From assembly GCA_964501075.1 (NCBI GenBank), contig CAZCRE010000001.1, positions 10,778 through 74,777 of the forward strand: a stretch of DNA of 64,000 bases. The letters run 5' to 3'. This document shows positions 11,641-56,625 of this stretch, piece by piece. Every line of letters starts with the position of its first letter. Positions within the stretch are counted from its first letter, which is position 1. A program made the position numbers and the translations under genes. Source of the DNA: an uncultured Candidatus Bathyarchaeia archaeon (GTDB lineage Archaea; Thermoproteota; Bathyarchaeia; Bathyarchaeales; Bathycorpusculaceae). Below the pieces are notes generated by a model, which was not told the DNA's origin, made no database searches, and saw only the letters and a program-made list of their open reading frames with translations.

Positions 11641-12831
11641 ATGCTTAGTGAGGAAATCAACTTGAATCCGCGCTTCAAACCAGTGGAACGCTTGAAACAA
11701 ATCAAATCCTCAGGAATACGCCGCTTTTTCTCTTTGGCCAGTGAAGTGCCTGGCAATATTAATTTAAGCGTCGGAGAACCTGATTTTTGTCCGCCCAAAC
11801 GGAGCCTAGAGGCTGGCTGGAAGGCTGCGGAAGAAGGAAAGACCCATTATGCACCGACCAATGGTATCCCTGAGCTTCGAGAAGCACTTGCTGAAAAGGC
11901 CTTGAACGACTATGACCTTGCCTATGACCCTGACTCCGAGATTCTTGTAACCGCTGGAGGCACTGAAGCCATTTTCTTGGCGTTATTCGGGCTGGTGAAT
12001 CATGCAGACGAAGTACTAATCCCAAACCCCGGGTTCGTTATTTATGAGCCTAATGTCAGGCTAGCTGGTGGTACTCCAATTTCTATTCCGTTGCTTGAGA
12101 AGAACGACTTCAAAATATCTGCTGAGGACGTGATGTCACTCGTCACAAGGAAATCACGTGCAATCGTCTTGAACTACCCGAATAATCCTACGGGGGCAGT
12201 CCTTTCTTACGACGAGATTGCTGCTTTAGCCGAGATTGCGGTTGAACGTGATCTAATTGTGATTTCTGATGAAGTTTACGAAAGAATAGTTTATGATGAT
12301 GCTAAACACTATTGCATTGCCGCTTTCCCGGGTATGCGCGAACGCACTCTGGTCGTCGGTTCTTTTTCCAAAACCTATGCTATGACTGGACTAAGGATTG
12401 GATATGTTTATGGGCCTAAAGAGCTTGTGTCTAACCTCTGGCTCGTTCATCAATATACTGTTGCCTGTGTGAACAGTCTCTCACAGTATGTTGCTCTCGA
12501 TGCACTGAAGGCGCCGCAAGGATTTGTCAAGGACATGGTGAAGGAGTTTGACAAGCGGCGACACTTGGTTCACAATAGGCTCAATGCGATCAGCGGATTT
12601 CATTGCGCACTTCCAAAAGGCGCTTTCTATGCTTTTCCCAACATCAAAGACTTTGATTTGACTTCAGAGGAGTTTGCCGAGCTCTTGGCGAGAAGAGCAC
12701 GCGTGATAACTGTGCCTGGGTCCTCTTTTGGCAGCTATGGTGAGGGCCACATTAGGATATCTTACGCTGCCGCTTATGAACAGTTAGAAGTGGCCTTAGA
12801 CCGAATAGAAAACACTGCCAGGGCTCTTTAA
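11641..12831 (+). CDS. class I/II PLP-dependent aminotransferase (aspartate aminotransferase-like)
   Basis: 396 aa. NYPNNPTG motif and the PLP-lysine context SFSKTYAMTGLRIGY. Confidence 0.85.
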   Translation: MLSEEINLNPRFKPVERLKQIKSSGIRRFFSLASEVPGNINLSVGEPDFCPPKRSLEAGWKAAEEGKTHYAPTNGIPELREALAEKALNDYDLAYDPDSEILVTAGGTEAIFLALFGLVNHADEVLIPNPGFVIYEPNVRLAGGTPISIPLLEKNDFKISAEDVMSLVTRKSRAIVLNYPNNPTGAVLSYDEIAALAEIAVERDLIVISDEVYERIVYDDAKHYCIAAFPGMRERTLVVGSFSKTYAMTGLRIGYVYGPKELVSNLWLVHQYTVACVNSLSQYVALDALKAPQGFVKDMVKEFDKRRHLVHNRLNAISGFHCALPKGAFYAFPNIKDFDLTSEEFAELLARRARVITVPGSSFGSYGEGHIRISYAAAYEQLEVALDRIENTARAL

Positions 12832-49094: not shown

Positions 49095-49445
49095 ATGGAA
49101 TTTTGTCCAAAATGTGGTTCTCGTCTTGTACCCAAGAAAGCGAAAAACGGCAAAGATGCGACATTAGTCATGATCTGCCCGAAATGTGGCTACAAGAAGA
49201 AAGCAGCGGACAAGATTGAGCCGAAACCAATCAAAGCCGTCCAGACTAACCCACGGCAACTCGTTGCAGTAATCAGCAAAGAGGAGCAAAAGCTGAGAAC
49301 ACTGCCCACCGTAAGGATCGAGTGCCCCAAATGCGGCAACAACGTGGCCTATGTTTGGCAAGTGCAGACGAGAGGCGCCGATGAGTCTTCGACGCAGTTC
49401 TTGCGATGCACGAAGTGCAGCTACACATTCAGAGAATACTCATAG
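49095..49445 (+). CDS. tfs: transcription factor S (TFS; RNAP subunit M-like cleavage factor)
   Basis: N-terminal ribbon CPKCGS...CPKCG. C-terminal ribbon CPKCGN...QVQTRGADESSTQFLRCTKCS with the acidic DE hairpin. Its last 14 codons plus stop coincide with attL. Confidence 0.9.
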   Translation: MEFCPKCGSRLVPKKAKNGKDATLVMICPKCGYKKKAADKIEPKPIKAVQTNPRQLVAVISKEEQKLRTLPTVRIECPKCGNNVAYVWQVQTRGADESSTQFLRCTKCSYTFREYS

Positions 49446-49446
49446 A
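49403..49446 (+). repeat. attL (left direct repeat)
   Basis: gcgatgcacGaagtgcagctacacattcagagaaTactcataga; overlaps the tfs C-terminus and stop. Confidence 0.8.
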
Positions 49447-50337
49447 CTTTCAGATTTTGCTAAAGGAAATATTCTCAAGCTAGCTTTTGAGCTTAGAAAC
49501 AGGGGCTACTCTGAGTCTTACTTGAAGACTTTGATTACTGCTTTGAATCATGTCGCTTCGAGAGTCGACGTTGAAGACACTTCAGCAGTCTTAGAACTCG
49601 TGGCAAAAGCGAAATGGAGAGACAGCTACAAAGCTAACTTGTGCGATTTCTACAGTCACTACTGCAAGTTCTACAACATCGCTTTCTCTAAGCCGAGGTA
49701 CAGAAAAGATCACAAAATTCCGAGGGTGCCGAGTGAAGAGAAGATTAATCTGATAATTGGGCACGCATCGAAGAAATACGCGATAATCTACAAAATCGCT
49801 ATGGAATGCGGGCTAAGACCGGTTGAGATTGGCGATTTGACTCTGAACGACATAGATTTGGTCAAAGGAATAATCTCAGTCTGCTCTGCGAAGCATGGCA
49901 ATCCGAGGGTTCTGAAGTTGAAAGACGAGACTCATGCTATGCTGAAGAAGTACGTCGGCGAGCACAAGTTCGGCTTGAATGACAGACTGTTTCCGTCGGG
50001 GGCTGTTATCAGCAACACGTATGAGAGACTGAAAGCTTCGCTGTCTAAGAAGCTTTGCGATTCTGAGCTGAAGAAGATTCGACTCTACGACTTGCGACAC
50101 TACTATGCAACGATGCTCTACTACAAGACTAAAGACATACTTCTAGTGAAAGAAAAGCTCGGACACAGAAACATCAATAACACTCTGATTTACACGCATC
50201 TCGTAAACTTCAATGAGAATGAAGAGTTCTACAGCGCGACAGCAAAAGCAGTTGACGAAGCAGCGAAGCTCATAGAGCAGGGCTTTGACTTCGTGTGCGA
50301 CTTGGACGGAGTGAAGCTGTTCAGGAAGCGGAAGTAG
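49403..50337 (+). CDS. int: tyrosine recombinase, C-terminal catalytic fragment Int(C) of a split integrase
   Basis: Catalytic-type motifs GLRPVEI (Arg), LYDLRHYYAT (HxxR) and LGHRNINNTLIYTH (His...Tyr). The reading frame is open through attL into tfs with no credible start of its own. The track ORF start at 49351 lies inside tfs. Confidence 0.8.
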
Positions 50338-50770
50338 ATACTCAATTCCCTTTTTTCTCTGTTTACATAACGTAAGCTTAGTAGACTGCACTTAATCTCT
50401 ACAAACGCCCGCTGAAGGGTATTTTTGTCTTATTAGGGATTGATTGGCGAAACAGAGCTTTGAACGTATGAGCTGGGGCTACAGTTGGGTTTTCCCTGCA
50501 TTCGTCAGGTTTTGGAAGAGTCTAATCGAAAAGTATGGTTTCAAACAAGCCTTGTTCTTATGGAGCAAATTGCTTTGTAGTCCATTTGTCGTCACTCGCC
50601 AAGTGAGGTTGACTAGGTTCTTGCCTGAGTATGAGCATATGAATACAAAGAGTCTGCCTTGGGGTGCACTGTTTCGCACTTCTTTTGAATAATATGTGCG
50701 TGCACCTGACTGAAGCTGTTGGTAACATTCATTAGCCAAACTAAGTTATTATCCACTGAGGTGCGTTTGT

Positions 50771-52150
50771 GTGAAACCAATAGTTGTAAATGAGAGACCT
50801 AAAGATCATGATCCTGAGGACTGCCGAGTTCCAGGGTGCGAAAGATGTAAACTGGATGTACCTTTTAAGCTGCCATCGCAAATTGTCAAGGCACATAAGA
50901 ATGGCGATCTCGTTATTTTTGCAGGTGCCGGCGTGAGCACGGAAAGTGAAGGGATTTTTCCACACGATTTTTATGAAGAAATCAGAAGAGAAGTGAAAAT
51001 CCCAGGAGAAAAAAAGGTCAGTTTTCCGGATTTGATGAGCCTCTATTGCTCAGCGCCGCGAAGTCGCAAAGACCTTTTGCTTCTCATAAAGAAGCGAATC
51101 GATGAAGTCAAAGCCTATCCTGAATTATATAACTTTGCAGCGGAATTTCATCGAGAAATTGCAACCGTTCCTCACTTAAATGAGATATTTACGACCAATT
51201 GGGATGATTTTTTTGAAAGAGAGTGTGATGCGACACCGGTGGTAACGAGTCAGGATTTCGCAGTCGTTCAAGACACCCCAGGAAGGAAGGTCTTTAAGCT
51301 ACATGGTTCGATTTACAACTATGGTTCGATAGTAGCCACAAAAAAAGACTATGAAAAGTGCTACAGAAGACTTTCCACTAGCATAATTGGCGCTAATCTC
51401 AAAATTCTTCTGATGTCCAAGACTCTGGTCTTCGTTGGTTTTTCCTTTGACGATGAAGACTTTCTCAGGCTTTATCGCCTTCTGAAGAAGGAAGTTGGGG
51501 GTATGCTTCCACAGTGTTACGTTGTGACCTTGGACAAGAAGGCAAAAAGAAAGCTTGAAGAACTCGATATCGAGGCAATCCCGATTCTGACTGGAGCTAC
51601 TTACTTCGTTAAGAACCTCAAGAAGAGACTAGTTCAAGAAGGTACCATGTTGCCTGATTCACAATTTCTAGGCATTCCAGAGATGCTTAAAGTTCTTTTT
51701 TCGGAAAGCGAGAAGATTCAAAAGTTGAGTTTGAAAGAACACCCAGATCTACTTTATACGGTAGCATATGAGAACGGATTCATGCATGCTCTTAATCGAA
51801 TAGCTATGACTAGAAACTCGGGCGAATACGGTTGTGGTCCACATATATTTGCTATGATTAAGTCGTTTGACCCCTCAATTAAGACAGCCTTGCGGAAAAA
51901 GCATTACGTTCAAGCTGCTTTACTCACTGGATTTCAGGCGGGTCTTGTGTTTTACCTCTCAAGTCCTGAAGATCGAAAGAAAGTACCACTATACTATATG
52001 CATGGCTGCAAGGAAGAGATTATGAATGTCGAGCAATGCATAAAGCTTGAAAAAAAAGCAGCGTCCTCAAATAAACTGGCGCATGACCAAGCCAAAAAAG
52101 AGGTCAGAGGGATTCCTAAAGGCATTTTTATTCATTATCCACCGTTTTAA
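50771..52150 (+). CDS. SIR2-like (SIR2_2) domain protein with unrecognised ~170-aa C-terminal domain; candidate NADase defence effector
   Basis: DLVIFAGAGVS (GAGxS NAD loop), IFTTNWDDFFE (TTNxD, catalytic Asn) and VFKLHGSI (catalytic His). GTG start with GAGGTG 8 nt upstream. Confidence 0.75.
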   Translation: MKPIVVNERPKDHDPEDCRVPGCERCKLDVPFKLPSQIVKAHKNGDLVIFAGAGVSTESEGIFPHDFYEEIRREVKIPGEKKVSFPDLMSLYCSAPRSRKDLLLLIKKRIDEVKAYPELYNFAAEFHREIATVPHLNEIFTTNWDDFFERECDATPVVTSQDFAVVQDTPGRKVFKLHGSIYNYGSIVATKKDYEKCYRRLSTSIIGANLKILLMSKTLVFVGFSFDDEDFLRLYRLLKKEVGGMLPQCYVVTLDKKAKRKLEELDIEAIPILTGATYFVKNLKKRLVQEGTMLPDSQFLGIPEMLKVLFSESEKIQKLSLKEHPDLLYTVAYENGFMHALNRIAMTRNSGEYGCGPHIFAMIKSFDPSIKTALRKKHYVQAALLTGFQAGLVFYLSSPEDRKKVPLYYMHGCKEEIMNVEQCIKLEKKAASSNKLAHDQAKKEVRGIPKGIFIHYPPF

Positions 52151-52586
52151 TTTAATAGAGATAGAACTCTTAACGGAGAACGTGCGGTTCTCGTTCCGGA
52201 AAACGGTCTCGCTCGCATCGTTGGGAGTTTTGCGAGAGCAAAGTGTCTCTACAGCGCGGGCTAGCATATCACTCTGCAAACCTGAAAAACGCTGCTGCGG
52301 AAAAATCTTTCAGGCAGAATCATTCGATGGATTTGGCTTAAGCTGTTGAAAACCAAAACAGGGATTTTCCCCTATACTGTACTGTATATGGGGTTTTCAC
52401 TGTTTTGAAATGCTCTTAGAGAGTTGCTGACTGCGCTTTCAAAAATCTTCGAGGATAAGACTTTACCCCAAAACCCAAACACAAACACACAAAAAGCAAC
52501 TTGTGTGGTTCAATTGAGTTTCAATCTTTACAGGGTATTCATAATCCTTATCGCGCTAGCAGAGATCAAATAGTAGTCTGGTTGGT

Positions 52587-53069
52587 ATGTATCGCCGTCG
52601 AAGAAGTGCGCCTCTCAAATTCGAAAAAGCCTATGAAATGCGACACAATCCGACACCAGCAGAGGCGCGCATGTGGGAAATCATAAAGGGTCAAATGATA
52701 CCTAATTTTCCAAATCATATCTTCTACCGACAGTCCGTGCAATTTGGCTACATATTGGACTTTTACTGTCCAACATTGCGACTAGGCATAGAAGTAGACG
52801 GTGCCATACATAACGAAAGAAAATGGTATGATTGGCAAAAAGACACCAATCTAGCACGTAGGCAAATACAAATGTACCGATTTAGCAATGTGGATGTCTT
52901 CAACAACCCGCAGGGTGTCGCCACTCGACTCTTTCAAATCATACAAGACAAAACGATGCCTTGGTATGCAACGAGTCATGCATCAGCGCTTCCCAATCAG
53001 AAAGACTGCAAAATGATACAAGAGAAATCGACGCCTTGGTATAAGAAAATCTTCAGATTCCTAGTGTAA
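52587..53069 (+). CDS. DUF559 (Vsr/restriction-endonuclease-fold) domain protein
   Basis: NPTPAEARMWEII...FYRQSVQFGYILDFYCPTLRLGIEVDGAIHN...D..L.......RFSN matches the DUF559 layout (D...E-x-D/K core). Confidence 0.7.
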   Translation: MYRRRRSAPLKFEKAYEMRHNPTPAEARMWEIIKGQMIPNFPNHIFYRQSVQFGYILDFYCPTLRLGIEVDGAIHNERKWYDWQKDTNLARRQIQMYRFSNVDVFNNPQGVATRLFQIIQDKTMPWYATSHASALPNQKDCKMIQEKSTPWYKKIFRFLV

Positions 53070-53247
53070 TGCGCGCAATTCTTGGAATCCACGTTTGCTT
53101 TTCGTCTCTCAGATACTTAGCGCGCGCTATCAATATCTCTGAAAGCTGAGGCGCGGTCAAACTAACGCAAGGATCAAGTTTGGTTTACAAGAGAGGCTAA
53201 AACACGGTCAGCGCGCGCAGAACGCTGTTCACAATCGAAGATGGGAG

Positions 53248-55281
53248 TTATGGAGGGAGAGGGTTAGTCACGGAGTTCGCTGAGTCACTTTTAGCACGCC
53301 TTTTCCTTAGCGCGCGCCACCTGAAGATCACAGCTAGGGAAATGACTACGGCCGACACGACTACGCCCAATAAGTAGTAAATAGAGAAGCTAGGTGCAAA
53401 GACGCTAGGCATAACCGTAAATGTTAGGGTTTCGCTTTCGCACATGTTCCGCGCATAATCATTCGGTATGATCGCCGCCACTTTCCATACGCCATCCTCA
53501 AAAAGCGTAGGCGTGTCACTGAACCCCCCCATTCCATCTGTCGTCACGATTCTCGTAAACGTCTCACCGTCTGGTTTCTGATAATTCAGCGTCACCTCCA
53601 AGCCCGGAAATGCCGTCAGATTCCCTTCTACCCTTATGTGAGCAACTCCGTTGACCGTAACGTTTGAACCTGATGCCGTCTCGTTTTTTGGCAGCGAGAT
53701 TGTGACCTGCGTGTCGTACTTGTTGATGGGCGGAAGCACCTCTATCTTTCTGCGAAAGCCAGGGATGCCCTCTCCAGAAACTTCCACGTAGTATACACCT
53801 GTCTTGGCAGACGGATAGACTTCTATCCGATTGTTGACATAGCTTGAACCGCCGATCACAAAGACGGCTCCGCAACCATAATGCATAAACTTTGGGCATA
53901 CCACGACATGATAATCATACATCATCGACACGCTGCCATACACTTTGATCTTCGCTTCCTCGCCGATCCTTATCGGATAGCCACCAACAATGAGTGTTTC
54001 CATGCTCTCAGCTTCCCAATGATCCACATCACCAAGCCACGCCGCCTTCATCGTCCAATTTCCGGCTGCATCCGGCGCGAAATTGTCAACGTAGGTACCG
54101 TTGGCAGATGTCTCAACAGACTTGCTAGTGACAGTGCCGTCGGGCTTGGTATAGGTTAGTGTGATGTCTGCCCCAGCGACAGGCGGATCTAGGGAGATCG
54201 AAACCGACAGCGTCTCCCCTGGAATGATCTGCCAGTCCCCTTTGTCGAGAGTTAGACGAAGGGCTACTGACTTCAGTATCTCAAGGAAGCGTATGCAGCC
54301 GTCGCTTCCCCCAGTACATGCAAATTTACCATCCGCAGAAATGGCCACGTCCTTAAACCGAACATCTCCATCACCGGAGGAATATGCGGAGTACTGCGTG
54401 CCATCCCCATTAAGAAATACTAGTCCGTAGAACTGCGTCAACGCTATGCGGTTTTGGCTCACTGAAATCGAGTCAGGTCTAGGAATGTTCTCCTTGCTCC
54501 AGCTCACTCTTCCGTTCCCATCAAGACAAAGAAGAGAAGTCGGACCGTAAAGTGCCGCCACCAGATAATCGCCATTGGGCGAGACACCAATCATTTTTTC
54601 TTCGCCCATAATGAAGAAGCTCATGTTTAGTTTGTAGCTCCACAACACCATCCCCCTATCGTCAAGGAAGTAAATCTCATCATTGGTGCAAGCTGCTATG
54701 CGTTCACCACTAGAAGATACAGAGACTTGGTACACGCTTGCGTTTAGCTCTTGCTTCCAAATTCTGTCACCAGTGATATTGAAAAGCGCGACGCTTTGGC
54801 CGTCACCTGCGATTATGTACCTGCCGTCTGATGAAATCTCTATATCACCGTACGCAGGGCTATCAAGCAAACGCTTTTTCCACAGTATTTGCCCTTCCCT
54901 ATTAAAGAGGGAAACATTACAATCGTCTTTTTCAAGTATGGCGACCGAGCTGGCATCACCGGAAATCGAAATCGATATATCACCCTGAAGAGCTGAGTAA
55001 GACTTATTCCACAAAAGATTCCCCCCCTCTCCTAAGAGAAGGATATCTGCATCGAAAAGACCACGATATACCAAAGCCGCTACATAGCTGCCATCCGCCG
55101 AAAAACAAACACGCTCAACCTCTGCACCCGTAGGGTACTTCCAGAAAACCGAAACAGATGCCTCAACTGCGACGGTCGCCAACAAACACAACAAGACTGC
55201 AACCGCGAATAGTCGAATATGGGCCTTCCTCCATCCGCGTGTGCCCAAGAAGACTATCCATAAGGTTTCTATCGAAGCCAC
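53248..55281 (-). CDS. cell-surface protein: N-terminal signal/TM, PQQ/WD-like beta-propeller, Ig-like repeats, C-terminal TM anchor
   Basis: Repeats of the S(A/S)DG.Y(I/V)..., ...LW.(K/Y) type, many N-x-S/T sequons, and a terminal VVSAVVISLAVIF plus basic tail RWRALRKRRAK. Confidence 0.7.
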   Translation of the reverse strand: MASIETLWIVFLGTRGWRKAHIRLFAVAVLLCLLATVAVEASVSVFWKYPTGAEVERVCFSADGSYVAALVYRGLFDADILLLGEGGNLLWNKSYSALQGDISISISGDASSVAILEKDDCNVSLFNREGQILWKKRLLDSPAYGDIEISSDGRYIIAGDGQSVALFNITGDRIWKQELNASVYQVSVSSSGERIAACTNDEIYFLDDRGMVLWSYKLNMSFFIMGEEKMIGVSPNGDYLVAALYGPTSLLCLDGNGRVSWSKENIPRPDSISVSQNRIALTQFYGLVFLNGDGTQYSAYSSGDGDVRFKDVAISADGKFACTGGSDGCIRFLEILKSVALRLTLDKGDWQIIPGETLSVSISLDPPVAGADITLTYTKPDGTVTSKSVETSANGTYVDNFAPDAAGNWTMKAAWLGDVDHWEAESMETLIVGGYPIRIGEEAKIKVYGSVSMMYDYHVVVCPKFMHYGCGAVFVIGGSSYVNNRIEVYPSAKTGVYYVEVSGEGIPGFRRKIEVLPPINKYDTQVTISLPKNETASGSNVTVNGVAHIRVEGNLTAFPGLEVTLNYQKPDGETFTRIVTTDGMGGFSDTPTLFEDGVWKVAAIIPNDYARNMCESETLTFTVMPSVFAPSFSIYYLLGVVVSAVVISLAVIFRWRALRKRRAKSDSANSVTNPLPP

Positions 55282-55422
55282 CCCTTAAGAAAGCGAGGCA
55301 TTCCTTTCCCTAATCTATATTGGTTGCACCAATAGATATCATTTTTGGAAGACTCTTTTAAAACAATTAGCATGGAGCATAAGCTCATAGAGAGAAACTT
55401 TTTTAAGCCCAGAATGTGCATA

Positions 55423-55428
55423 TTTATA
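55423..55428 (+). promoter_or_regulatory. TATA-box candidate for the split integrase gene
   Basis: tttata lies about 20 nt upstream of the Int(N) ATG at 55446, consistent with a short-leader or leaderless archaeal transcript. Confidence 0.35.
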
Positions 55429-55445
55429 CCAAAAGAGGAATAGAA

Positions 55446-55547
55446 ATGGCTGAAAATGAAAAAGAGGCTAGAAATTTTGGCGATGCACTAAGTGCAGCTA
55501 CACATTCAGAGAACACTCATAGAATTCATGTTCAAAAATACGCATAG
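55446..55547 (+). CDS. int: Int(N): N-terminal fragment of the split integrase
   Basis: ATG at 55446 gives MAENEKEARNFGDALSAATHSENTHR, then runs out of attR into flanking DNA and stops at 55547. The residues SAATHSENTHR are shared with the frame entering Int(C) at attL. Confidence 0.7.
   Translation: MAENEKEARNFGDALSAATHSENTHRIHVQKYA
55480..55523 (+). repeat. attR (right direct repeat)
   Basis: gcgatgcacTaagtgcagctacacattcagagaaCactcataga. In the tfs frame it still reads CTKCSYTFREHS-stop. Confidence 0.8.
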
Positions 55548-55629
55548 ATGATTCTATTACTTTTTTGATAATTGGTTGGGACTCAAATATGGCTGCTGGC
55601 CTCCAACCAGCAAGCTATAAAAGTGTTAG

Positions 55630-56199
55630 TTAGGCCATTCTTTCTTGTCCGATGTGCTCTCTGTGAGACTGTTTCTTCTTTGGGATCGTTATCTTGAGTA
55701 CTCCGTTTTTGCATTCAGACGTCATAGAATTCGTGTCTAGGTTGCTCTTTGGCAGTTCTATGATCTTGTAGAAGTTCTTGGCTTTCACCTCAAGACCGTC
55801 TTCTCTGAAGTGCAATTGTATGTCTTCCTTTTCCTCTCCAGGCAATTCAACATAGATTTTTGTGGCGTCTTCTTCGTTGAAGATATCTGTTAATGGTTCC
55901 CGTATGTCTTTTGCTTCATTCTTTGAGAGTTCAAAAGGATTCTCGGGCAATGGTCTTCGTCTTGGTGGTTTCAACGGTTCAATCGGTTCTAGCGATTCGT
56001 TGAAGCCAAAGCGGCCTTGTATGATGAAGCCTTTTGCTTGTGGCTCATTGATTTCTCTGGTTTCCCAGGCGCCTTTGATTTTCCCGCTTGTTATTTCTCT
56101 GAACATCTCGTCTATTTCTTTCTGAAATCGTTTCATGAGTCTTCTGTTCAATGTGTCCAAGTCTTCAAACATATCGTCAAAATCATCACTAAATGCCAA
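55630..56199 (-). CDS. Hsp20/alpha-crystallin family small heat-shock protein
   Basis: KIYVELPGEEKEDIQL...GLEVKA...NGVLKITIPKK alpha-crystallin pattern. Confidence 0.75.
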   Translation of the reverse strand: MAFSDDFDDMFEDLDTLNRRLMKRFQKEIDEMFREITSGKIKGAWETREINEPQAKGFIIQGRFGFNESLEPIEPLKPPRRRPLPENPFELSKNEAKDIREPLTDIFNEEDATKIYVELPGEEKEDIQLHFREDGLEVKAKNFYKIIELPKSNLDTNSMTSECKNGVLKITIPKKKQSHREHIGQERMA

Positions 56200-56205
56200 C
56201 GTGCT

Positions 56206-56625
56206 TCACCTCCTGTCGTCCTCGATCTCTTGAACAGACTCCATCAAACGGTGCAATGCTAGGCTCATCATCATGAATGCCGTCCGCCCAAAATCTGAAC
56301 AGCTATACTTTCCTCGGCTCGTCTTTTCCAGAAGTCCGCCTTCTTCGAGTTTCCGTGAGTTCTCCCAGACAATCTTCGGGTTCAAATCCAGTTCTTTCAT
56401 GAAGCCTGTAAAACTGATTGTCTGGCTTTCCTCTTCGATCAATTGCTTCATCATTCTCAAGCGTGTTTCATGTGACAGAGCGTCAAAGATCTTTGAGAAC
56501 TTATCGAAGTCTTCTTCAGCTGCCTTGAACTCGTTTTCCAGATCCTCTTTCGGCCAATCTACTGGAGAAAGGGGCACCTCAAACACTGTTTTTCCATCTT
56601 GCATGAGCTTCAGTCTTAACTTCAT
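56206..56625 (-). CDS. ArsR-like winged-helix regulator, co-transcribed with hsp20
   Basis: FDALSHETRLRMMKQL...FMKELDLNPKIVWENSRKLEEGGLLEK is an ArsR-type wHTH. There is a 6-nt gap to the hsp20 start. Confidence 0.65.
   Translation of the reverse strand: MKLRLKLMQDGKTVFEVPLSPVDWPKEDLENEFKAAEEDFDKFSKIFDALSHETRLRMMKQLIEEESQTISFTGFMKELDLNPKIVWENSRKLEEGGLLEKTSRGKYSCSDFGRTAFMMMSLALHRLMESVQEIEDDRR

Follow-up and report, generated by a model that had tools for sequence, protein, structure and literature searches.

The 64,000-nucleotide (nt) stretch analyzed here (the window; contig CAZCRE010000001.1) belongs to a Bathyarchaeia chromosome and carries at 49447-55523 an integrated mobile element of 6,077 bp, measured from core start to core start of its flanking repeat. 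Immediately to its left lies the host gene for transcription factor S (TFS; 49095-49445, forward strand), whose 116-residue product ends in KCSYTFREYS and matches NCBIfam TIGR01384 (TFS_arch, 83 bits; cutoff, 64.75) and Pfam Zn_ribbon_TFIIS (1e-18). The element is bracketed by a 52-nt direct repeat, 90% identical between its copies at 49398-49449 and 55475-55526. Within this repeat, a 34-nt core defines the left and right attachment (att) sites on the forward strand: attL at 49413-49446, with weaker similarity out to 49398-49449, and attR at 55490-55523, with similarity extending over 55475-55526. The two cores differ at a single position (T49437/C55514). Since the core has two matches at three or fewer mismatches in the window versus 0.00 expected from 100 shuffles, the repeat is not a chance match. 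From 55527 on, just past attR, the window is again homologous to the closest genome (L005), which fixes the right boundary of the element.

Parts of a single integrase gene (int) occupy the two ends of the element. As the first-pass annotation of this DNA had described, an open reading frame (ORF) starting at ATG 55446 runs into attR. This ORF, Int(N) (55446-55547, forward strand), opens with MAENEKEARNFGDALSAATHSENTHR, continues as IHVQKYA, and ends at a TAG stop (55545-55547). Positions 55446-55523 encode integrase residues 1-26, which comprise MAENEKEARNFGDAL and the att-encoded SAATHSENTHR; seven further codons then extend into host DNA before the TAG. Directly behind attL, at 49447-50337 on the same strand, lies Int(C), the 296 residues from 27 to 322, with a TAG stop at 50335-50337 and a match to Pfam PF00589. 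When 55446-55523 was joined in silico to 49447-50337, the resulting 969 nt formed one ORF of 322 amino acids, free of stops and frameshifts, as the same annotation had predicted for a rejoined tyrosine recombinase. The rejoined protein matches Pfam Phage_integrase PF00589 (5e-20, 72.4 bits; cutoff, 27.1). The core falls at codons 15-26 of the rejoined ORF, meaning that the att site of the free element, attP, lies inside the integrase ORF. The proposed partition into Int(N) and Int(C), with attP in the 5′ part of int, is thus borne out by the join in the window and, independently, by a pair of related elements (L001 and L104) described below.

The rejoined protein contains the R-K-(H/Y)xxR-H/W-Y residues required of the tyrosine recombinase superfamily (PF00589). 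Catalytic residues R150, K175, Y240-x-x-R243, H266, and Y275 are invariant or nearly so in an alignment of 31 sequences (A2), and box II reads L-Y240-D-L-R243-H, that is, YxxR and not KxxR. An AlphaFold model based on 31 family members has a mean predicted local distance difference test (pLDDT) score of 80, with residues 1-26 scoring below 50. The first helix of the model spans residues 24-44, and the XerA model aligns from residue 50 on. The model suggests that Int(N) is a disordered tail and that Int(C) holds the whole predicted fold, including both the core-binding and catalytic domains. Given that Int(N) is predicted to be disordered, the split would remove the promoter, Shine-Dalgarno sequence, start codon, and tail, not a folded domain. 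At the other end of the protein, a conserved β-α-β-β extension follows Tyr275 (integrase residues 287-322; window region 50305-50337), and XerA is devoid of this extension.

The target is the protein-coding end of TFS. attL consists of the last 11 TFS codons and the TAG stop, and no tRNA genes were found in the window, in keeping with the earlier suggestion of a non-tRNA target. In the TFS frame, attL reads ...FLRCTKCSYTFREYS followed by a stop, and attR reads ...FWRCTKCSYTFREHS followed by a stop. The TFS C-terminal coding end is thus also present on the element, and because this copy is identical, TFS is restored upon insertion and remains full-length after integration. The same DNA is dual-coding: frame 0 specifies the TFS C terminus and frame +1 specifies integrase residues 15-26. 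The integrase reads att as SAATHSENTHR (residues 16-26), with codon 15 straddling the left edge of the core. Because the target is a conserved protein-coding gene, the att DNA must satisfy two reading frames. Searched with the TFS protein, species-representative genomes yielded 80 loci, nearly all labelled Bathyarchaeia or Bathyarchaeota with a few other bin names, and the TFS C terminus is REYS followed by a stop in 80/80 of these Bathyarchaeia orthologues. With this ending invariant among them, C55514 (core position 25) must represent an allele that the element brought in or a mutation that arose afterwards. In the former case, strand exchange would take place within the last 9 bp of the core (ACTCATAGA). 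The circular junction predicted at 55523/49447 reads ...GAACACTCATAGA/CTTTCAGATTTTGC, and the restored empty site predicted at 49446/55524 reads ...TTCAGAGAATACTCATAGA/ATTCATGTTCAAAAATACG. In the host arm B′, a T6 run (55561-55566, forward strand) is probably the native TFS terminator, which the insertion would have displaced by 6 kb.

Signals for expression of int are found at attR. A TATA-like box, TTTTTTAA (55399-55406, forward strand), lies ~40 nt upstream of the int start and is the putative int promoter, and a Shine-Dalgarno-like GAGGA (55435-55439, forward strand) precedes ATG 55446 by 6 nt. In the window and in relatives L009, L088, L098, L118, and L124, a (C)TTTTTAAGCC motif is found at this distance from the start (~40 nt). 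The same six attR regions share a GAGG Shine-Dalgarno sequence ((T)AGAGG/GGAGG) 6-9 nt before the start. The first-pass annotation had instead pointed to a TATA-like tttata (55423-55428). That hexamer ends 17 nt before ATG 55446 and is not conserved in relatives. The usual archaeal spacing from TATA to transcription start is ~26 nt, and a 17-nt gap is too short for it; given this and the lack of conservation, tttata is probably not the promoter, and the conserved box is the one at 55399-55406.

We consider it very probable that the window harbors an integrated element with attP inside the 5′ end of its own integrase gene (the type I or "suicidal" layout), split at TFS and able to rejoin in frame. 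In the circular form, int would be one 322-residue ORF under its own TATA-like box, with the Shine-Dalgarno sequence at 55435-55439 and the start at ATG 55446, and attP (codons 15-26) would correspond to the last 11 TFS codons and stop, read in the +1 frame. The element would insert by recombination of attP with the 3′ end of TFS, restoring TFS while cutting int in two. The promoter, start, and 26-residue tail, Int(N), would be left at attR, and the 296-residue Int(C) would land directly behind the TFS stop with neither its own promoter nor its native start. Excision would rejoin the 26-residue head and the 296-residue body in frame and would presumably need an intact integrase supplied in trans.

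A homology search with the joined protein returned 673 relatives, among which a natural pair displays both states of such an element. Relative P0029 (57% identical, 327 residues) begins with MKAKGNSKRNEARASSFSAALSAATHSENTHK, resembling Int(N) of the window. Its contig, L001, a k141 assembly, has a 141-nt terminal overlap and represents a 4,528-bp circle or tandem junction with the att core inside an intact int, which is a single ORF through att from a start with a Shine-Dalgarno sequence. L104, whose sample and source are not those of L001, has these 4,528 bp (4,527/4,528 nt identical) inserted after a TFS 3′ end. There, the 34-nt core is duplicated, Int(C) is located at attL, and a start beginning MKAKGN... 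reads into attR. L001 and L104 constitute a natural episomal/integrated pair, in which splitting and rejoining are seen directly in a relative of the window element. L124, which has a P-O-P′ junction and lacks an upstream TFS, was considered as a second intact episomal-type int; because of a frameshift in the gene and cellular-looking flanks, it was not used as circle evidence. The reading frame also changes at approximately the same place (integrase residues ~68-88, between the core-binding and catalytic domains) in L118, L121, L123, and L130, which derive from different samples. These five frameshifted genes, L124 included, could be pseudogenes of shared ancestry, mark a recurrent frameshift site, or reflect a sequencing artefact.

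The arrangement is conserved across the closer relatives. Every metagenomic integrase of at least ~50% identity with a TFS 3′ end in view (45/45) is located directly after TFS, and in 42 of these 45 the +1 frame of TFS runs stop-free into Int(C). Many relatives begin with MFGKCR...SSCDA.NATTHSENTHK, corresponding to a TFS zinc ribbon translated in the +1 frame. A second core behind a short int-frame ORF with a start codon was found in L009, L088, L093, L098, L104, L112, L117, and L118, where the Int(N) ORFs have the common start motif M-[TA]-E-x-x-K-E. Int(N) and Int(C) likewise stand at opposite element ends in L088, L098, L112, L117, and L118. In relatives at 44-49% identity, int adjoins a tRNA gene, and the stretch from the end of that gene to the first helix contains no start. 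L165 (tRNA-Leu, lying within the called ORF), L168 (tRNA-Ala), and L170 (tRNA-Gly) are examples. From this lack of a start, the sequences suggest that a wider clade has the same layout at tRNA targets. The tRNA-Gly of L170 (7596-7673) abuts P0116 on the strand opposite the integrase body; this antiparallel arrangement resembles that described for pT26-2 (PMC7253208) and differs from the parallel orientation in L165 (tRNA-Leu) and L168 (tRNA-Ala). ARAGORN found no adjacent tRNA in the group at 32-36% identity (L134-L159).

The 80 species representatives share the synteny endonuclease dU (EndoDU)-TFS-PCNA. No integrase homologue follows TFS in 76 of the 80, and in most of them PCNA begins ~100-700 nt after TFS. 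An integrase or its remnants directly follow TFS in the other four (L005, L006, L009, and L048), and the TFS end is duplicated in L070. The closest genome, L005, whose TFS and PCNA are 94% and 95% identical to those of the window, has two tandem Int(C) genes after TFS. These genes (CAVTAO010000003.1, 10354-15900) are 72% and 93% identical to Int(C) of the window. The middle att of L005 is at 12768-12801, its Int(N) lacks an ATG, and the rightmost attR is deleted; the whole looks like a trapped tandem array. TFS and PCNA are adjacent in most Bathyarchaeia, and only the window and L005 have an Hsp20 gene (55630-56199, reverse strand) and an ArsR-like gene (56206-56625, reverse strand) between them. 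The interval from attR to PCNA was searched for a third, degenerate att copy that might mark the Hsp20/ArsR pair as an older element, and none was found at nine or fewer mismatches; the pair may be an older insertion or lineage-specific genes. These data mark the 3′ end of TFS as a hot spot for integration, useful for delimiting mobile elements in metagenome-assembled genomes of Bathyarchaeia.

Between the int halves, the element carries three cargo genes. The first (50771-52150, forward strand) encodes a defense-like, 459-residue SIR2-like protein (Pfam SIR2_2, 8e-22), for which PADLOC matched the SIR2 domain of Thoeris ThsA (9e-23). A ThsB-like partner was not recognized nearby, and the gene may be a stand-alone defense gene on the element. 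A SIR2 protein of 24% identity also lies downstream of a distant (33%) integrase in L146. The second gene (52587-53069, forward strand) encodes a 160-residue DUF559 protein with a Vsr-like endonuclease fold (Pfam DUF559, 7.5e-19). Its 3′ end contains a 32-nt direct repeat (52936-52967 and 53011-53042, 88% identical), which gives rise to a doubled C-terminal peptide, IQDKTMPWY/IQEKSTPWY. The third gene (53248-55281, reverse strand) encodes a secreted or membrane protein of 677 residues with β-propeller and Ig-like domains (Pfam PQQ_2, 3e-8, with other weak β-propeller matches); in the composition profile, its G+C content is ~0.50 versus ~0.43 in the remaining element. A Pfam scan recognized no replication, conjugation, or virion/capsid genes among the cargo. 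The element was also considered as a virus: neither the single protein nor alignment A2 retrieved a close viral relative from IMG/VR, the only match being 29% identical, and these scans therefore give no evidence that it is one. In L085 (Ga0315274_10012108, 234-1155), an integrase 93% identical to that of the window follows a 98%-identical TFS, and none of the three cargo genes was found downstream; the int-att module thus appears to be shared between elements of differing cargo.

These gene contents bear on whether the architecture is historical only, that is, whether the element is a trapped, decaying remnant unable to excise, as in L005, L006, L009, and L048. In favor of this are the lack of recognizable genes for replication, conjugation, or capsids, the frequency of decayed or tandem copies at the TFS site of other genomes, and the one position at which the att cores differ. 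In the window, however, neither half of int is interrupted or out of frame, every catalytic residue is present, the start, Shine-Dalgarno sequence, and TATA-like box are preserved, and the cores are identical at 33/34 positions, all of which speaks for recent integration. We regard the remnant explanation as unlikely, though it is the strongest of the alternatives, and it concerns the present mobility of the element, not the identity of the structure.

A second alternative holds that the split is functionally only apparent: Int(C) would be co-transcribed with TFS and translated from an ATG inside it, giving an active integrase under host control, such that integration would swap one promoter and start for another without inactivating the gene. 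Upstream of attL, the int frame stays open as far back as 49315, and its extension into the +1 frame of TFS (49351-49446, forward strand) includes in-frame ATGs at 49351 (328-residue ORF) and 49381 (318-residue ORF). A GAGAGG occurs 8-13 nt before ATG 49381, and the public gene call P0001 is exactly the 318-residue ORF from that codon. No T-run of five or more occurs between 49446 and 50350, from the TFS stop to the int stop, which makes read-through transcription of Int(C) from TFS plausible. The first T6 run after the TFS stop (50351-50356, forward strand) lies 14 nt past the int stop and is the likely end of a TFS read-through transcript in the integrated state. With the replaced N terminus predicted to be disordered, any such start would deliver the whole modelled fold.

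The survey of TFS genes argues against this alternative. The +1 frame of at least the last 32 TFS codons is stop-free in 74/76 empty-site genes and 38/39 occupied ones, against a random expectation of ~20% by rough estimate. Since the frame is equally open where no element is present, its openness belongs to TFS and not to the element. An in-frame ATG is present at 53/76 empty sites versus 15/39 occupied sites (Fisher p = 0.002, relatedness ignored). Selection for an open frame or an ATG upstream of attL was accordingly rejected as unsupported, because empty sites show the same open frame and ATGs are rarer at occupied sites. What is conserved instead is the start, Shine-Dalgarno sequence, and TATA-like box at attR, and, on general grounds, ribosomes would not be expected to initiate efficiently inside a translated gene in an overlapping frame. 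ATGs 49351 and 49381 are probably fortuitous and not a native start, and an active chimera is improbable. The first-pass annotation had stated that the integrase body has no start codon of its own and had named as evidence against the split an additional start by which the left fragment would suffice on its own. Read literally, the first statement fails on the two in-frame ATGs, although these are not conserved in relatives. The two ATGs formally touch the second point as well, but we do not regard them as a refutation, because such ATGs are absent in 24/39 occupied relatives and the open frame is general to TFS genes. The open +1 frame does have a consequence for annotation, as it leads gene callers to report chimeric integrases of 318-328 residues that start inside TFS. 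These "complete" integrases are host-element chimeras, and they mask both the split and the element boundaries.

A classical type II (lambda- or pNOB8-like) integrase with its true start downstream of att (e.g., a TTG giving MKTLITALN..., as in the L005 homologue P0003), with att merely adjacent and the Int(N) ORF coincidental, is very improbable: gene callers gave 268-271-residue versions starting inside the body for many homologues, and a review assigns YxxR to pNOB8-type and KxxR to SSV-type integrases (PMC8371274), but with a downstream start the protein would lose helix 24-44 and part of helix 49-63, segments of the predicted core-binding domain that are conserved and modelled with confidence, no ATG lies between att and residue 145, the L001 int is uninterrupted through att, and starts reading into attR recur in at least eight relatives.

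Several points weigh against the reading of a self-splitting, rejoinable int. For the exact element and strain of the window, no circular junction or empty site was recovered, and the collections were not re-searched for them. The L001 overlap proves a P-O-P′ junction, for which a circle and a tandem dimer are indistinguishable. In principle, a full-length Int(C) fusion protein could be made from ATG 49351 or 49381, so that inactivation by integration is not proven. Because it has no recognizable replication or virion genes, the element may need helpers in order to move or may not move at all. Finally, no attR repeat was found in the available flanks of tRNA-abutting relatives (L166, L168, and L170), and for that sub-clade we therefore only infer the split layout.

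The integrase had also been labelled SSV-type, which holds for one of its two aspects. The gene organization is type I, reportedly a category of She and colleagues from 2002. As judged from sequence, the protein is not a member of the SSV/pTN3/pT26-2 family. Pfam PF16795 was not matched by the window protein or by three relatives, for which PF00589 was the only hit at E ≤10. Structures of SSV1 Int are present in the PDB, and the SSV1 integrase chain was absent from the PDB sequence search (E ≤1), the profile search (E ≤10), and the top 50 Foldseek hits. Sequence, profile, and structure searches of the PDB gave as best matches archaeal XerA (5hxy and 4a8e), IntI4, XerH, Tn1549 Int, Cre, and lambda Int. 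The annotation had proposed a hidden Markov model or structure comparison with SSV- and pTN3-type integrases; these searches instead point to a XerA-like protein with PF00589 alone. Against the XerA equivalog NF040815, the protein scored 99.8 bits, far below the cutoff of 220, and is thus not XerA itself.

These results can be set against current accounts of such integrases. The 2021 review cited above ties suicidal integrases to PF16795 and to a single origin in one monophyletic superfamily, credits the layout in its conclusions to hyperthermophilic archaea, and lists protein-gene targets only for other integrases (PMC8371274). For the pT26-2 family, only tRNA targets were reported (Badel et al. 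2020, PMC7253208). A paper on the Bathyarchaeia virome (PMC10541130) contains no description of such a split integrase. We found no literature on TFS as an integration target or on split integrases in Bathyarchaeia; our coverage is incomplete, and "not described" is accordingly provisional. Tentatively, and at a little short of even odds in our estimation, these integrases may form a large undescribed clade of XerA-like (PF00589, YxxR) enzymes in Bathyarchaeia and related Thermoproteota with attP inside int, either of an origin independent of SSV/pTN3/pT26-2 or as a far extension of that lineage. One sub-clade would have moved from tRNA genes to the dual-coding TFS site. Because the N-terminal piece is only a predicted disordered tail, integration might act as a switch that disconnects the promoter and start codon from an otherwise complete enzyme; in some hosts, read-through from TFS together with an ATG embedded in it could re-arm the enzyme. 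Finding this layout in another recombinase family, a Xer-like one from a widespread sediment and soil class, the Bathyarchaeia, bears on how often the paradoxical self-splitting arrangement evolved and on how target switching works.

Among known systems, the archaeal XerA recombinases of chromosome dimer resolution are the best sequence and structure match and share the two-domain Xer fold. Unlike XerA, the window gene is part of an att-bounded element missing from most genomes, and its product has a C-terminal extension and an att-encoded N-terminal tail. The pNOB8-type (type II) integrases have the R...YxxR...Y signature and occupy the same PF00589-like Xer/integrase sequence space, but a type II int stays intact on integration, whereas the window int is split.

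With the SSV-type systems (SSV1, SSV2, pTN3, and pT26-2), the window element shares an attP that lies inside the int ORF and is translated, Int(N) and Int(C) at opposite element ends, tandem and decayed copies that pile up at the target, and a presumed need for intact integrase in trans for excision. The enzymes differ, being PF00589/XerA-like with YxxR in the window and PF16795 with KxxR in the SSV group. The usual SSV-type target is a tRNA gene, whereas the window target is the protein-coding TFS 3′ end, read in two frames. Int(N) of SSV1 comprises ~65 residues and is a larger functional piece with a role in multimerization; that of the window is 26 residues, predicted to be disordered. SSV-type hosts are mainly hyperthermophiles. 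The window host belongs to the Bathyarchaeia, which are known mainly from sediment, soil, and peat metagenomes.

A parallel in target choice comes from Thaumarchaeota. The excerpted text of Krupovic et al. 2019 (PMC6563490) reports 14 thaumarchaeal elements in protein-gene 3′ ends and also one element, NitEve-E3, with a split SSV1-like integrase. In those excerpts, a split integrase and a protein-gene target are not described together, and TFS is not among the quoted targets. The att sites of that survey are often very short, whereas the window core is 34 bp and one target is common to the whole sub-clade. The self-splitting layout itself is known, from hot-spring archaeal viruses; what appears to be new is its presence in a Xer-like Bathyarchaeia family with a dual-coding att site in TFS.

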